Shown here: piece after piece, positions 124 through 5,048 of the stretch
How positions within the stretch are numbered: position 1 is the stretch's first letter
Layout of the letters: each line of letters starts with the position of its first letter
Notes under the pieces: generated by a model
Databases searched by the model: none
Seen by the model: the letters and a program-made list of their open reading frames with translations, nothing else
Told to the model about the DNA's origin: nothing
Translations under genes and position numbers: made by a program
Assembly (NCBI GenBank): GCA_964392135.1
Contig: CAYMPX010000001.1
Location: 1 to 42,958, forward strand
Length of the DNA stretch: 42,958 nt
Direction: 5' to 3'
Source of the DNA: an uncultured Methylomarinum sp.
GTDB taxonomy: Bacteria > Pseudomonadota > Gammaproteobacteria > Methylococcales > Methylomonadaceae

Positions 124-1359
124 CTAACTGCCAAACTTGTCAAATAGTATATTTTCTGAATCCACGCCAAGATCGGATAGCATAGTCTGTACAGCGGAAA
201 GCATCATTGGGGGGCCGCATAGATAGAATTCACAATCTTCCGGTGCTGCGTGATGTTTTAGATATTTATCGTATAGAATCTGGTGGATAAATCCCGTTTC
301 ACCCTGCCAGTTATCTTCTGGCAATGGTTCAGATAAACCTATAGTCCAATCAAAATTATCAAACTCTTGAGCCAGTGAATCAAAATCCTCAATATAAAAC
401 ACTTCACCGAGACTTCTTGCACCATACCAAAAAGATATTTTACGTTGACTATGCAAACGTCTCAATTGATCGAAAATATGTGAGCGCATGGGTGCCATCC
501 CCGAGCCACCACCAATAAAAATCATTTCATTTTTTGTTTCACGAGCAAAAAACTCACCATAAGGCCCATAAATGTCAACCTTATCTCCTGGTTTTAGGTT
601 ATAAATAAAAGAGGATACAATACCAGAGGGTACTTCCGATTGTTGGGGGGGAGGCGATGCAATGCGTACATTGAGCATAATAATCTCTTTTTCATCGGGA
701 TAATTGGCCATAGAATAGGCGCGTGTTACAGCTGCATCCGATTTTGACCGATATTGCCACAGATTAAATTGATCCCAGGTTGACCGGTATTTATCATCAA
801 TATTAAAATCATTATAGGATACTGAATAAGGCGGGGCTTCCAGCAAAATATATCCTCCCGCGCGAAAATTAATCTGTTTATCAACGGGCATTTGCAAAAT
901 TAATTCCTTGATAAAAGTTGCCACGCATCGATTAGAGCGAACGGTACACTCCCATTTATTGATGGTCATTAACGATGCAGGTAGTTCTATCGCCATATCC
1001 TCTTTAACTGCCACCTGACAGCCAAGGCGATAATGGGAACGTATCTGGTTATGGCTGAGCTTTGCTTTCTCGGTAGCCAAAACACTCCCGCCACCTTGAG
1101 TAACAATAAGGCAACACTGTCCACAGGTACCGCAACCGCCACATGCAGACGGCAAATAAATACCTTGTTCGGCCAGTACGTGCATTAATTTATTCCCTAC
1201 AGGCACTTGCAGCGTATGCTCAGAATCATTATTTATCAGAATACGAACCTGACCGCTAGTCACCAGTCTTGAGCGGATAATCAGAATAAGTGATACTAAT
1301 ACCAATACTAAACCGGTAAATGCAACCATACCTAAAATAACCACTTCCTGTTCATTCAT
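124..1359 (-). CDS. nqrF: NqrF-like NADH:quinone oxidoreductase subunit F (N-terminal TM helix, 2Fe-2S ferredoxin, FAD and NADH domains)
   Basis: 411 aa, the same length as NqrF and similar to it end to end. It has an N-terminal hydrophobic helix, the 2Fe-2S motif SACGGCGTCGQC, the FAD motif RAYSMANYP and the NAD motif GGGSGMAPMRSH. Its start overlaps the upstream gene by 8 nt. Confidence 0.9.
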   Translation of the reverse strand: MNEQEVVILGMVAFTGLVLVLVSLILIIRSRLVTSGQVRILINNDSEHTLQVPVGNKLMHVLAEQGIYLPSACGGCGTCGQCCLIVTQGGGSVLATEKAKLSHNQIRSHYRLGCQVAVKEDMAIELPASLMTINKWECTVRSNRCVATFIKELILQMPVDKQINFRAGGYILLEAPPYSVSYNDFNIDDKYRSTWDQFNLWQYRSKSDAAVTRAYSMANYPDEKEIIMLNVRIASPPPQQSEVPSGIVSSFIYNLKPGDKVDIYGPYGEFFARETKNEMIFIGGGSGMAPMRSHIFDQLRRLHSQRKISFWYGARSLGEVFYIEDFDSLAQEFDNFDWTIGLSEPLPEDNWQGETGFIHQILYDKYLKHHAAPEDCEFYLCGPPMMLSAVQTMLSDLGVDSENILFDKFGS

Positions 1360-2905
1360 TACCTTGTCTCCTCAACGCGTATAGAAAAGGACCATAACCA
1401 TCACTACCCAGCCAATAATGCACCAGATTATTAACACCCCGGCTGGTCAGTGTGGCACCAGAAAGTCCATCCACTTGATATATCGCTGCAGATGAATTTG
1501 GCAACACCTCTCCTTTGATGACGCTAATGGCAACATCATCATTCGCGTCAAAAGCCTGTTTTCCCTGCCAAAGTTTTTGCCAGCGAGGATTGGTGATTTC
1601 ACCCCCCAGACCGGGAGTTTCTCCCTGTTGATAGAAGGTTATGCCCGCAATGGTTTTAGCGTCACTCTCCAAAGCAAGAAAACCATATAGGGTTGACCAT
1701 AAGCCTTTACCATATATTGGCAGGATAATTTTTTGTAGCTTATTACTCTTTTTGACCAAGTAAATGGGCATGTATTTTGGGCGCCGTTTGATATTAGCAA
1801 TATCAAGTTCTGCCGGAATTTTTTCGCCGTACTCAGGGTCTTTAGCCAAGGCATGGATAGTCAACTTATCTAAATGGGTTATACTATCGTTCAGGTATTT
1901 TCCAGACTTCAATATAATCCATTGTGTTTCAATATTTTGCTGGTAAATCGTGTCGATATTGACATTTTCTGTGTACAGATCAGCAACCAGTAAAATATTT
2001 TTGATTTTTTCCAAGCGCTGATTTTCTTTTTGACGGGGACTTAATTTCACCGCAGCGATTGATACCAAAAAAGAAGCAACCAGACAAACACCTAGAACCA
2101 CTTGATAGGTTTTTAAAATACTGTTGTTGCTATTATTAATTGTTGGTTTGATTTCTCTATTGGAGTGGTCGATGGTGTCCGGTCGTAAAAACCATATTTG
2201 ATATAAAGAAATTAGAATCTGTAAGCTTAATGAAAGGCCTAATAAGCCACCTGCAATGACGACTGTATATGCATACATGGGATCCCATTTGGTTAAAAAC
2301 CAGGAGAGTATATCGACAAAGATGGCTAAAAAAGGCGTGACTATCAATGGATATTTAATCCAGCCAGGTAATGCTGAGTGTATAAAAATATAACCAAGAA
2401 CAAATAATACCAATCCGATACCAAACAAATGAATATGAGAAAGCTTGACTAAAGTATGTATGGATTCACCGGTATCAACCTTGGCTACTTCCTGTATCCC
2501 GGAGTAAGAGGATAAATCGGGAATATTCAGACCTGATGCTGGCGTATGGCATTGCAAGCAGGTTTTTGTGAGAATGGGATAAATAAGTGATGAATAATCT
2601 TTTTCAGGGATGCCCTTTTTAAGCCATTCGACAATAATATGGCGGTCTTCTATCTGTATATAAGCAGCCATTGGCCCACGAATTGCCGCCTCCAGTCTGG
2701 AACCACTACGATTACCATAGTATGTATCGGCAACGTCTTCAATGGATATCCCGGGTTTACCATCATGTCCCTGATGTGAAGTATAAAGATAATACATTGC
2801 CATAAGATAAGCCGAACCTATTAACAGTAAATAACAGGTAAATAAAAGCTTTTCGCTGAGACTGCAATCAATGAAACTCCTGTTTTTCTTTTTTGTATAT
2901 TGCAT
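1352..2905 (-). CDS. Fusion protein: uncharacterised multi-TM domain with one c-type heme motif joined to an NqrC-like FMN-binding subunit
   Basis: The ORF runs to a TTG at 2923, but the ATG at 2905 (MQYTKKKNRS) is the more likely start. The N-terminal half has about 4 hydrophobic helices, CLQCH (2546-2560) and SHIHLFG. The C-terminal half begins with a fifth TM and matches NqrC: YGKGLWS, GETPGLGGEI, and the flavinylation motif DGLSGATLTS at about 1441-1472. Confidence 0.85.
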   Translation of the reverse strand: MQYTKKKNRSFIDCSLSEKLLFTCYLLLIGSAYLMAMYYLYTSHQGHDGKPGISIEDVADTYYGNRSGSRLEAAIRGPMAAYIQIEDRHIIVEWLKKGIPEKDYSSLIYPILTKTCLQCHTPASGLNIPDLSSYSGIQEVAKVDTGESIHTLVKLSHIHLFGIGLVLFVLGYIFIHSALPGWIKYPLIVTPFLAIFVDILSWFLTKWDPMYAYTVVIAGGLLGLSLSLQILISLYQIWFLRPDTIDHSNREIKPTINNSNNSILKTYQVVLGVCLVASFLVSIAAVKLSPRQKENQRLEKIKNILLVADLYTENVNIDTIYQQNIETQWIILKSGKYLNDSITHLDKLTIHALAKDPEYGEKIPAELDIANIKRRPKYMPIYLVKKSNKLQKIILPIYGKGLWSTLYGFLALESDAKTIAGITFYQQGETPGLGGEITNPRWQKLWQGKQAFDANDDVAISVIKGEVLPNSSAAIYQVDGLSGATLTSRGVNNLVHYWLGSDGYGPFLYALRRQGNE

Positions 2906-2994
2906 TATGAATACCGACTCCAAGAGGGGCTAAGTTTCAGATGACATCGGCTAAATGGATGTCATCTGTTTCATATAAAATGGAAATCCTGGGA

Positions 2995-4587: not shown

Positions 4588-4667
4588 AAATCACCTCGTT
4601 TATACACTACAAATCAAGTCGATGAGCCTTTAAAATTCATCTAAGAAAATGTAATTAATACAAAACT

Positions 4668-5048
4668 TTATTCATTCATAAATTTATTACGCATATATTT
4701 CAGTACATCTCTTATATCCTGGTCAGTTAAATTAGGATTACCTCCATTTGCAGGCATAGCGATTGGGCTTCCTGGTGTTTTTACCCCTTTTCTAATATGC
4801 TCACGATGCTGGAATAAATCAGTATCTGAATGAGACGTTTTATTAAAACCGGCGACTTGGGTTAAATTTGGCACGCCGGAAAATGCCCCGGTTCCATCAC
4901 TGCCATGACAGGCTACACAGTTTTGTTGATAAACCTGAAAACCATTCACATTGTCAGTCTCTGTTTTTGATGCGGGATATCCTGATTCTGGCTCATACTT
5001 TGTGCAAGCAGTCAAAAACAGCAATACCAAAAAAAATTTTTTATGCAT
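4668..5048 (-). CDS. Lipoprotein class I monoheme cytochrome c
   Basis: 126 aa with lipobox FLTAC, the heme motif CVACHGSDGTG, and a distal PIAMPANGG Met ligand region. Confidence 0.8.
   Translation of the reverse strand: MHKKFFLVLLFLTACTKYEPESGYPASKTETDNVNGFQVYQQNCVACHGSDGTGAFSGVPNLTQVAGFNKTSHSDTDLFQHREHIRKGVKTPGSPIAMPANGGNPNLTDQDIRDVLKYMRNKFMNE

Follow-up and report, generated by a model that had tools for sequence, protein, structure and literature searches.

A gene cluster joining Nqr subunits, cytochromes c, and a porin beside cusCBA in an uncultured Methylomarinum: a candidate module for NADH-fed electron export to the cell envelope

Na+-translocating NADH:quinone oxidoreductase (Na+-NQR) carries an intramembrane Fe-S center in its NqrD/NqrE pair, and its NqrB subunit holds FMN, riboflavin, and the quinone site. 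In iron oxidizers, Cyc2 joins one small c-type heme domain to a barrel of about 16 strands; it alternates with Mto/Mtr-type conduits in related genomes. ApbE-flavinylated NQR/RNF-like systems have been described in which an NqrB/RnfD-like membrane domain is fused to a NAD-binding domain (Meheust et al., eLife 2021, PMC8238504). For Methylobacter, a putative extracellular electron transfer (EET) cluster was proposed to serve anode respiration, in a report that leaves Nqr unmentioned (FEMS Microbiol Ecol 2026, PMC13322032). Here we analyzed a stretch of 42,958 nucleotides (nt) from an uncultured Methylomarinum sp. (assembly GCA_964392135.1, contig CAYMPX010000001.1, positions 1 to 42,958; hereafter the window), which contains at 124-5048 a cluster of five minus-strand genes encoding two small cytochromes c, a porin, an NqrC fusion protein, and a paralogue of NqrF (NqrF′). 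In its working, this cluster would be closest to the ApbE-flavinylated export systems, to the Mtr-type clusters of Methylobacter and Rhodanobacter and, for its outer-membrane logic, to Cyc2. An initial annotation made from the sequence alone had stated that no characterized system has this composition. The statement stands after literature searches, which found no description of NqrF′ arranged with an Aq_1264_TM::NqrC fusion, a porin-cytochrome cassette, and cus genes; the combination was not described before, and the kinds of component were already known.

The cluster probably serves to deliver NADH electrons to the envelope and thereby to alter the redox state of a metal, copper for example. 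In the more specific reading that we favor tentatively, with a probability of roughly 0.45, the five genes are a functional accessory to cusCBA, the Cu(I)/Ag(I) efflux operon next to them, and form a module that exports electrons from NADH to the periplasm and outer membrane, where they would reduce a soluble metal, likeliest Cu(II), in the service of CusCBA.

Genes in the window were located by calling open reading frames (ORFs), families were assigned by Pfam and NCBIfam profile searches, and folds by AlphaFold2 models and Foldseek; signal peptides and lipoboxes were assigned by eye. The five co-directional ORFs, listed by ascending coordinate, are nqrF′ (124-1359, 411 aa), the gene for the Aq_1264_TM::NqrC fusion (1352-2905; 517 aa from the ATG, with an alternative TTG start at 2923), cytS (2995-3279, 94 aa), the porin gene (3289-4587, 432 aa), and cytL (4668-5048, 126 aa). 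The fusion gene overlaps nqrF′ by 8 nt, and cytS starts 9 nt after the porin stop. A terminator-like hairpin of the intrinsic type, with an 11-bp stem followed by a T run (78-103, minus strand), closes the operon after nqrF′, and an AT-rich spacer of 553 bp (5049-5601, minus strand) separates cytL from cusA. The initial annotation had placed all five genes, the overlap, and the gap exactly where ORF calling finds them; the terminator and the non-coding region of about 550 bp that it had reported are real, and its gene identities (NqrF, a heme-c/NqrC fusion, a porin, and two cytochromes) were upheld by profile searches and models. Rfam and tRNA scans of the region, with the spacer included for Rfam, gave no match. 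In six fusion-type loci (e.g. L001, 8586-8993), a protein of ~128-135 aa with no family match is conserved after nqrF′; in the window this position is beyond view, the contig ending 123 nt past nqrF′.

NqrF′ is full length. It scores 621 bits against TIGR01941 (cutoff 295), matches the Pfam domains Fer2, FAD_binding_6, and NAD_binding_1, and has the complete architecture of an NqrF subunit, i.e. an N-terminal transmembrane (TM) helix followed by a 2Fe-2S ferredoxin domain and the FAD and NADH domains. The alignment with NqrF of Vibrio cholerae (8a1t_F) covers residues 6-410 with 539 bits and ~65% identity, and the 2Fe-2S cysteines are kept (a cluster at nt 1114-1143 and the Cys of GCQV at 1012-1023). 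Identity is 64-68% to canonical NqrF of Methylobacter, Methylomarinum, and Methyloprofundus as well as to Vibrio. In a rough neighbor-joining tree, which carries no support values, NqrF′ forms a separate monophyletic clade. By alignment, NqrF′ is near-canonical. For its TM helix and ferredoxin domain, the distance to canonical sequences only slightly exceeds the distances among these: identities to canonical NqrF versus those within the canonical set are 0.52 vs 0.60 for the TM helix, 0.55 vs 0.61 for the ferredoxin domain, and 0.65 vs 0.69 for the whole protein. In the same rough tree the canonical NqrF sequences of Methylobacter fall into two separate clades (svalbardensis/metagenome-assembled genome (MAG) vs marinus/YRD-M1), which hints at two nqr lineages or operons in this genus.

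The second Nqr component forms the C-terminal half of the fusion protein (1352-2140, minus strand; approximately residues 256-517) and is predicted to consist of one TM helix and a periplasmic FMN_bind domain. It scores 314 bits against NF003749 (cutoff 255), matches PF04205, aligns with V. cholerae NqrC at E 2e-62, and reaches a Foldseek TM-score of ~0.8 on the target. At the sequence level it has all the features of an NqrC subunit, including the predicted flavinylation motif SGAT with its threonine (residues 482-485, nt 1451-1462). In both components the cluster is like the Na+-NQR of V. cholerae. Unlike in Na+-NQR, the NqrC part stands behind a 4-TM monoheme cytochrome, and the neighbors are cytochromes c, a porin, and cusCBA instead of quinone-reducing or Na+-pumping subunits. 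As the initial annotation had claimed, nqrA, nqrB, nqrD, nqrE, and apbE are missing from the locus: no domain of theirs was found among window ORFs of at least 100 aa scanned against Pfam and NCBIfam, and none of the five genes occurs in the annotated orthologous loci L001-L005. With four of the six subunits absent, the cluster is not a Na+-NQR complex. It shares with the ApbE-flavinylated systems of PMC8238504 a cytosolic NAD(P)H module, an extracytosolic FMN_bind domain, one-way export, and modular flavin and cytochrome parts, but in place of an NqrB/RnfD-like part it has a complete NqrF together with an NqrC that is fused to a membrane domain bearing heme c. Nor is it the flavin-based EET system of Firmicutes (Ndh2, EetA/B, FmnB, PplA), with which only FMN_bind is common, the identities of the five proteins being different.

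The N-terminal 245 residues of the fusion (2171-2905, minus strand) belong to PF27139, Aq_1264_TM, according to precomputed Pfam assignments (protein cluster P0001). In the predicted layout, TM1 is followed by a periplasmic stretch of ~110 residues with the heme motif CLQCH (nt 2546-2560) and then by three further TM helices. The family motifs YYGNRSG (2702-2722), SHIH at the start of TM2 (2429-2440), and WFLTKWDP (2279-2302) are present, matching the CxxCH, GxM, SHxH, and (S)WWLTK-like motif after TM3 that mark the Aq_1264_TM unit. In an alignment of 36 family sequences, C116, C119, and H120 are invariant and H157, H159, K184, and D198 near-invariant; across the family, CxxCH never varies, and a GxM, the SHxH where TM2 begins on the periplasmic side, a single Lys, and a single Asp are almost invariant. 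As the C-terminus of the unit is predicted to be cytoplasmic, the NqrC helix would put the FMN domain in the periplasm, so that heme c and FMN are both predicted on the outer side of the membrane. The published DeepTMHMM topology of a Methylobacter homologue agrees with a periplasmic heme c (PMC13322032). A Foldseek search of the AlphaFold2 model against the PDB matched only the NqrC half, with no fold match at E <0.1 for the Aq_1264_TM half. The latter was also considered as a substitute for NqrD/E and was rejected: its sole cytoplasmic-side cysteine, C14, is unconserved, and since a conserved intramembrane set of Cys or bis-His residues is lacking, nothing in it resembles the NqrD/E Fe-S site. 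The fusion is intact in nine full-length protein clusters (P0001-P0009), with about ten 90%-identity clusters in all.

The remaining three genes constitute the cytL-porin-cytS cassette. CytL is a lipoprotein-type class I monoheme cytochrome c (PF00034, 2e-14) with an LTAC lipobox, the heme motif CVACH (nt 4905-4919), and a Met ligand in AMP (4752-4760). CytS, also a lipoprotein-type monoheme cytochrome c, has a lipobox-like Cys23, the heme motif CTNCH (nt 3124-3138), and a conserved HM (3064-3069); its closest solved structure is SorB (2blf_B, E 1.4e-3). For the porin, the AlphaFold2 model (pLDDT 80.8) shows an outer-membrane barrel of 16 strands, whose long internal loop spans 186-219, preceded by an N-terminal coiled-coil stalk of two helices (37-61 and 76-102). 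Foldseek retrieved the trimeric general porins OmpC, OmpU, OmpT, OmpM1, and Omp32 (E 1e-14 to 1e-10). Profile searches against Pfam and NCBIfam gave no match, in Pfam none beyond coiled-coil noise even at E <=1, and sequence and profile searches against the PDB returned coiled-coil noise only. Some of its 718 homologues carry PF07396 or the NCBI name OprO/OprP, which suggests that the porin is distantly OprO/OprP-like, although the window protein itself does not match PF07396. On the model, the porin is a solute channel of general-porin fold and not a cytochrome sheath; a role as an MtrB-like sheath was rejected on strand number and fold.

Wherever loci were compared, cytS lies directly 3′ of the porin gene, and cytL is missing from one orthologous locus only (L003). 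In three proteins (P0141, P0144, and P0182) cytL precedes the coiled-coil stalk as an N-terminal fusion, which would place its heme domain outside the barrel, at the stalk's periplasmic tip. The cassette is an independent and widespread unit that recurs in Methylocaldum, Nitrosomonas, and other contigs. Its neighbors in Methylocaldum are multicopper oxidases, an outer-membrane efflux protein (OEP), and DUF2231, and in locus L096 it adjoins a multicopper oxidase and a Metal_resist gene. We also noted that in Methylocaldum sp. BRCS4 (L093, 10142-14113) the cassette is followed by a protein of 635 aa that has a Met-rich segment at its N-terminus, a single TM helix, an FNR-like domain, and a C-terminal 2Fe-2S domain. 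Further genes there encode a 253-aa TM protein, a cytochrome with ~7 hemes, and a Met/His-rich protein with an HPMPE repeat; the set looks like an analogous reductase-to-envelope system among multicopper oxidases.

In layout, the cassette is like Cyc2, with one small c-type heme domain and a barrel of ~16 strands, which are fused (cytL::porin) in relatives, and with a soluble metal ion as presumed partner. It is unlike Cyc2 in that the genes in the window are separate, a coiled-coil stalk lies between cytochrome and barrel, and a second cytochrome is present. The presumed flow also differs, being outward from NADH in the window and inward from Fe(II) in Cyc2. A further likeness is that the cassette alternates with an Mtr-type conduit in Rhodanobacter. 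The Mtr/Pio/Pcc barrels themselves have at least 20 strands and sheathe a cytochrome with 8-10 or more hemes; with 16 strands and monoheme cytochromes only, the cluster has neither the large barrel nor the multiheme cytochrome and is not an Mtr/Pcc conduit.

Related loci were collected by exact-protein look-ups and by searching 185,579 species genomes with the Aq_1264_TM half of the fusion as query. The module is rare (~10 of these genomes). In total, 12 non-redundant loci carry the NqrC fusion, all with the same gene order, and their hosts are MAGs (e.g. GCA_964509475.1, JALSIU01, JAKIUK01, and JAJRUF01) that are assigned to Methylococcaceae, Methylomarinum, or Methylomonas or are unclassified gammaproteobacteria. 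The invariant order is [cusCBA]-[cytL]-porin-cytS-fusion-nqrF, so that the co-conservation of the five genes, proposed as a check in the initial annotation, was found. Compared with five orthologous loci, the ratio of nonsynonymous to synonymous substitutions (dN/dS) was 0.05-0.13 for nqrF′, 0.075-0.12 for the fusion, 0.10-0.18 for the porin, 0.15-0.18 for cytS, and 0.19-0.31 for cytL, with dS near or past saturation in the more distant pairs. Since the order is kept in 12 loci and dN/dS of all five genes is well below 1, the cluster is more than a chance assembly; these are working genes under purifying selection and not debris, and pseudogenization was rejected on the same grounds.

Immediately upstream and on the same strand lies cusCBA, which the initial annotation had passed over. 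It comprises cusA (5602-8772), encoding a CusA-type Cu(I)/Ag(I) pump of the resistance-nodulation-division (RND) type (TIGR00914); cusB (8765-10366), encoding a CusB-type membrane-fusion protein with duplicated N-terminal metal-binding repeats; and cusC (10359-11654), encoding a CusC-type outer-membrane factor (OEP), all on the minus strand. CusA scores 1234 bits to CusA of E. coli vs 541 to the Zn pump ZneA, and the three-methionine Cu(I)/Ag(I) site is aligned and kept (LYMP 7054-7065, SMMETT 6895-6912, RIDMLS 6751-6768). For the window CusB, CusB was the best NCBIfam match but below the model cutoff; its orthologues carry precomputed BSH_CusB/HMBD assignments. All eight loci in which more than ~0.7 kb upstream is visible have cusA or cusCBA directly upstream of the module, with a cusA-cytL gap of 71 to ~780 bp, or 2.2 kb in L019. 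Within the spacer, ~70 nt upstream of cytL, the motif TTTGACAyrGGTGTTrCTCrTAGG (~5118-5140) is shared by three of seven aligned loci (also L013 and L023) and may be an internal promoter or operator; it was also scored as a weak hairpin in the terminator scan.

Beyond these loci, Aq_1264_TM is represented by 762 sequences at 50% clustering, mostly stand-alone proteins of ~245 aa; a stand-alone member also occurs in the cultured Marinobacter sp. SS8-8. Other architectures are SPW::Aq_1264_TM (Rhodanobacter, Acidiferrobacterales, Sulfuriferula) and YHS::Aq_1264_TM, YHS being a metal-binding domain. A heavy-metal P-type ATPase gene is found ~4 kb upstream and on the same strand in 19 of 71 other Aq_1264_TM loci, which also hold YHS, DUF5676, PEMT-like methyltransferase, and MerR genes, in counts made by simple ORF calling and BLAST clustering on related loci that are not phylogenetically independent. 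The family is common in Gallionellaceae and other iron or sulfur oxidizers. No multiheme cytochrome was found beside the 80 closest Aq_1264_TM loci, save one 6-heme protein in L077, and a tblastn search of 72,556 plasmids with the domain gave no match.

The link of Aq_1264_TM to Mtr-type genes comes from Rhodanobacter terrae and the published Methylobacter cluster only. In the cultured R. terrae (L097, 4941-10813), a monoheme cytochrome, a 10-heme MtrA-like protein, a 792-aa MtrB_PioB barrel, SPW::Aq_1264_TM, and a PSCyt1-like cytochrome are encoded together. This cluster adjoins ccm cytochrome-maturation genes, and R. terrae would be a tractable organism for the family. In Methylobacter, the protein Methylobacter_1_02048, listed as an "inner-membrane-anchored monoheme cytochrome, 4 TMRs" (PMC13322032 supplement), aligns with the window domain over its full length at 39% identity (E 3e-52). 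Like the window cluster, both have a periplasmic monoheme cytochrome, an outer-membrane barrel, and then an Aq_1264_TM-family protein in the inner membrane. They differ in having a decaheme MtrA and a 26-strand MtrB/PioB barrel without Nqr parts, as against a 16-strand porin, two monoheme lipoproteins, the NqrC fusion, NqrF, and cusCBA in the window. In both clusters an Aq_1264_TM homologue fills the inner-membrane slot, i.e. it stands where the inner-membrane partner of Mtr/Pio-type clusters would stand. In the Sideroxydans literature, Aq_1264_TM occupies the place that CymA has in Mto clusters.

In Rhodanobacter MAGs, a porin 32% identical to that of the window (E 5e-55) and a diheme cytS::cytL fusion directly precede SPW::Aq_1264_TM, cusCBA follows a few genes downstream, and the locus also holds a flavodoxin-like gene. 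The Aq_1264_TM and PSCyt1-like genes of these MAGs are 63% identical to those of R. terrae. As these inner-membrane genes are orthologous, the porin-cytochrome cassette and MtrAB hold the same slot, and this swap is the best evidence that the cassette may be the outer part of an envelope redox path. Of the route drawn in the initial annotation, the general course from the cytoplasm towards the outer membrane is thereby supported, both by Aq_1264_TM homologues beside MtrA/MtrB-type genes and by a cassette that replaces MtrAB. Its details for the membrane crossing and for the porin did not hold: a final step from the cytochromes to the porin as an electron wire is unlikely, because a 16-strand porin with a long internal loop cannot sheath a cytochrome, and the step across the membrane to the periplasmic FMN has no encoded carrier, with NqrD/E absent and no intramembrane Cys/bis-His set.

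In the mechanism that we propose, NqrF′ would oxidize NADH via FAD and then the 2Fe-2S cluster. Electrons would arrive on the periplasmic side of the fusion protein, at the predicted covalent FMN of the NqrC half and the heme c of the Aq_1264_TM half, and would be transferred from there to the lipoprotein cytochromes CytS and CytL, working with the 16-strand porin. The porin is probably a diffusion channel for a small soluble acceptor, which CytS or CytL would reduce at the inner face or mouth of the pore. The likeliest acceptor would be Cu(II), and the resulting Cu(I) could then be exported by the adjacent CusCBA; an aerobe could thereby clear oxidized copper from its envelope. For the crossing of the membrane, housekeeping NqrD/E (or RnfA/E) might be borrowed. 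Methylomonas, Methylobacter, and Methylomarinum commonly have canonical NqrC and NqrF, and the near-canonical NqrF′ together with the absence of apbE from the loci suggests a dependence on housekeeping nqr (or rnf) genes. Alternatively, Aq_1264_TM could act via the quinone pool; within Mtr-type clusters it stands where CymA would, which suggests such a role.

The potentials of the Nqr cofactors lie far below those of c-type hemes. We infer an outward flow from this difference in potential and from the lack of an energy-coupling subunit for the reverse. Different cytoplasmic reductase-type genes accompany the cassette or the domain in other lineages (FNR/2Fe-2S in Methylocaldum, flavodoxin-like in Rhodanobacter), in agreement with outward flow. 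Cus exports copper as Cu(I) only, and Cu(II) is suggested as the acceptor because its product would be the substrate of the adjacent pump and because Cus would otherwise offer an aerobe no outlet for oxidized copper in the periplasm. The cus synteny and the surrounding metal island point to metal redox homeostasis and away from respiratory EET. Also in favor of a metal-related role are the YHS fusions of Aq_1264_TM and the heavy-metal genes near 19 of its 71 other loci, as well as the cassettes that adjoin multicopper oxidases, Metal_resist genes or, in Rhodanobacter, cusCBA. If so, the module would be like the cupric reductases (CcoG, NDH-2 of E. coli, Fre/STEAP/Dcytb) in converting Cu(II) to Cu(I) at a membrane and, like the eukaryotic Fre/STEAP/Dcytb, would take electrons from a nucleotide in the cytoplasm and pass them across the membrane for reduction outside (PMC7558416). 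It is unlike them in that there is no homology, and CcoG has 4Fe-4S clusters and acts in cbb3 oxidase assembly. No NADH-driven, periplasm-directed bacterial cupric reductase is given in that 2020 review.

A number of observations weigh against this proposal. No carrier for the transmembrane step is encoded in the cluster, which lacks NqrD/E, and the Aq_1264_TM family alignment conserves no intramembrane Cys or bis-His set. The main argument is that turning Cu(II) into the more toxic Cu(I) seems risky and counter-intuitive; the periplasmic detoxifiers CueO and PcoA oxidize Cu(I), i.e. do the opposite, and in some loci the cassette itself adjoins multicopper oxidases. With a porin in its resistance operon, the cell might take in more metal. 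An obvious Met/His-rich copper-binding stretch is seen in none of the five proteins. The 553-bp spacer may have its own promoter, so that co-transcription with cus is not a given. Gallionella and many other Aq_1264_TM genes occur in housekeeping contexts without metal genes, one cassette lies near PhoU, and all carriers of the module are uncultured MAGs or metagenome contigs. Rather doubtful is the version in which the module is a self-contained, periplasm-facing reductase of Cu(II) (or of silver or another metal), driven by NADH through Nqr parts without the sodium-pumping core, where Aq_1264_TM would provide both the passage through the membrane and a copper site (SHxH plus Asp) beside its heme. 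In this version, the module would be the first dedicated envelope metal reductase feeding an RND efflux pump ("reduce to export"), and Aq_1264_TM (>700 sequence clusters) would gain a function as the inner-membrane gateway of porin-cytochrome systems.

Respiratory or overflow EET, with NADH electrons passed, when oxygen runs short, to external acceptors such as humics, chelated Fe(III), or further oxidants and with the adjacency of cus reflecting a shared island only, would account for Aq_1264_TM homologues in the inner-membrane slot of MtrAB-type clusters (R. terrae; Methylobacter, PMC13322032), for the interchange of cassette and MtrAB in Rhodanobacter, and for the origin of the carriers from oxygen-limited settings (MAG collections of vent or seep type). 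We judge it unlikely, given that cus synteny holds in eight of eight loci and is independently repeated in Rhodanobacter, that monoheme cytochromes and a 16-strand porin with an internal loop provide no wire spanning the outer membrane, that a drop from NADH to heme c without a pumping core would be wasteful as a respiratory route, and that the module is so rare. Distinctly less probable again is a use of the two Nqr parts as isoforms of the F and C subunits within a housekeeping NqrA/B/D/E core, which would pass electrons from the FMN of NqrC through heme c to the ordinary cytochrome c pool and oxidases, as a bypass of quinone and bc1 under metal stress in which metals are not the acceptor. 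Such a use fits the near-canonical TM helix and ferredoxin domain of NqrF′, which could retain docking surfaces, and the prevalence of canonical NqrC/NqrF in the three genera named above. It would also explain why no locus encodes NqrD/E, NqrB, or ApbE, which are required to attach FMN and to cross the membrane. However, it leaves unexplained the dedicated porin with its two lipoprotein cytochromes and the link of Aq_1264_TM itself to outer-membrane modules, and a swap of NqrC alone would need no second NqrF.

An inward flow would have the cassette oxidize Cu(I), as a CueO-like detoxifier, or Fe(II), with electrons passing via the heme of Aq_1264_TM to the quinone pool or through reversed Nqr parts to NAD+. 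The frequency of Aq_1264_TM in Gallionellaceae and other iron or sulfur oxidizers, the presumed CymA-like position in Mto clusters, the resemblance of the cassette layout to the Fe(II) oxidase Cyc2, and the proximity of the cassette to Cu(I)-oxidizing multicopper oxidases are in its favor. We nevertheless regard it as very improbable: transfer from a c-type heme through FMN, 2Fe-2S, and FAD to NAD+ needs an energy-coupling core that is not encoded, lithotrophic NADH would be of no obvious need to a methanotroph, and NqrF′ keeps a complete NADH/FAD site. Finally, since only two of six nqr genes are present, the pair might be a decaying piece of a rearranged nqr operon (the initial annotation had allowed for a rearranged fragment) that came to lie beside cytochrome and porin genes by chance. 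This is contradicted by the same fusion and order in 12 loci of several genera, by dN/dS of 0.05-0.13 for the Nqr parts with all cofactor motifs intact, and by the monophyly of NqrF′, and has next to no likelihood.

Should the proposed export of electrons for CusCBA hold, the module would deliver cytoplasmic reducing power to the envelope and supply a missing step of copper homeostasis, the periplasm-directed reduction of Cu(II) for Cus. It would give a role to the Aq_1264_TM family, members of which also adjoin Mtr-type conduits in Methylobacter, Rhodanobacter, and probably other organisms, and would mean that the NADH-oxidizing and periplasmic flavin subunits of Na+-NQR can be detached from the pump and wired to cytochromes, raising the bioenergetic question of how electrons pass through the membrane without NqrD/E. 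It would also bear on the handling of copper, on which methane oxidation depends, by methanotrophs in metal-rich, oxygen-poor vents and seeps.

By its gene content, the window up to ~24.6 kb is a metal-resistance island of apparently composite character (Cu/Ag and Zn/Cd). Upstream of cusC, a small secreted Cys/His-rich protein without a family match (11912-12295, minus strand) is possibly encoded by the first gene of the minus-strand unit, for which the best sigma-70-like match is at 12342-12314 on the same strand. On the plus strand follow a second heavy-metal RND system (12940-18668; OEP, membrane-fusion protein, and CzcA-type pump), genes for a PepSY_like and a P-II protein, and a ZntA-type P-type ATPase (19601-21904), convergent with a ZntR-like MerR regulator (21908-22354, minus strand).

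Some minor features of the island and its surroundings were also noted. The N-terminus of CusB contains a tandem duplicate of a segment of ~35 residues (KILFYRNPMNPSVTSPTPAKDAMGMDYVAVYA / KILFYRSSMNPSVTSPVPAKDSMGMDYVPVYA), and its C-terminus ends in a His/Met-rich tail. Between the two RND operons, the genes at 11912-12295 (minus strand) and 12355-12789 (plus strand) are divergent; their small products have Cys/His clusters (HCAG...DCHSSCTVHICGG; HTPHCGVCSYDHGGH) as well as signal or TM segments, the second one matches DUF2946 weakly (E 0.014), and a role of the two as metal-binding or regulatory partners is conceivable. The edge of the island (22333-24606, minus strand) carries genes for an NHL-repeat beta-propeller protein, a 304-aa protein without a family match, and a 107-aa HMA (CopZ/MerP-like) protein with an N-terminal extension. 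Farther along, at 33728-38541, His_biosynth-like, ATP-grasp_3, Hydantoinase_A-like, chorismate-binding, and AA_kinase-like genes stand in a run that resembles the tetrahydromethanopterin-linked C1 gene sets of methylotrophs, in keeping with a methanotroph origin.

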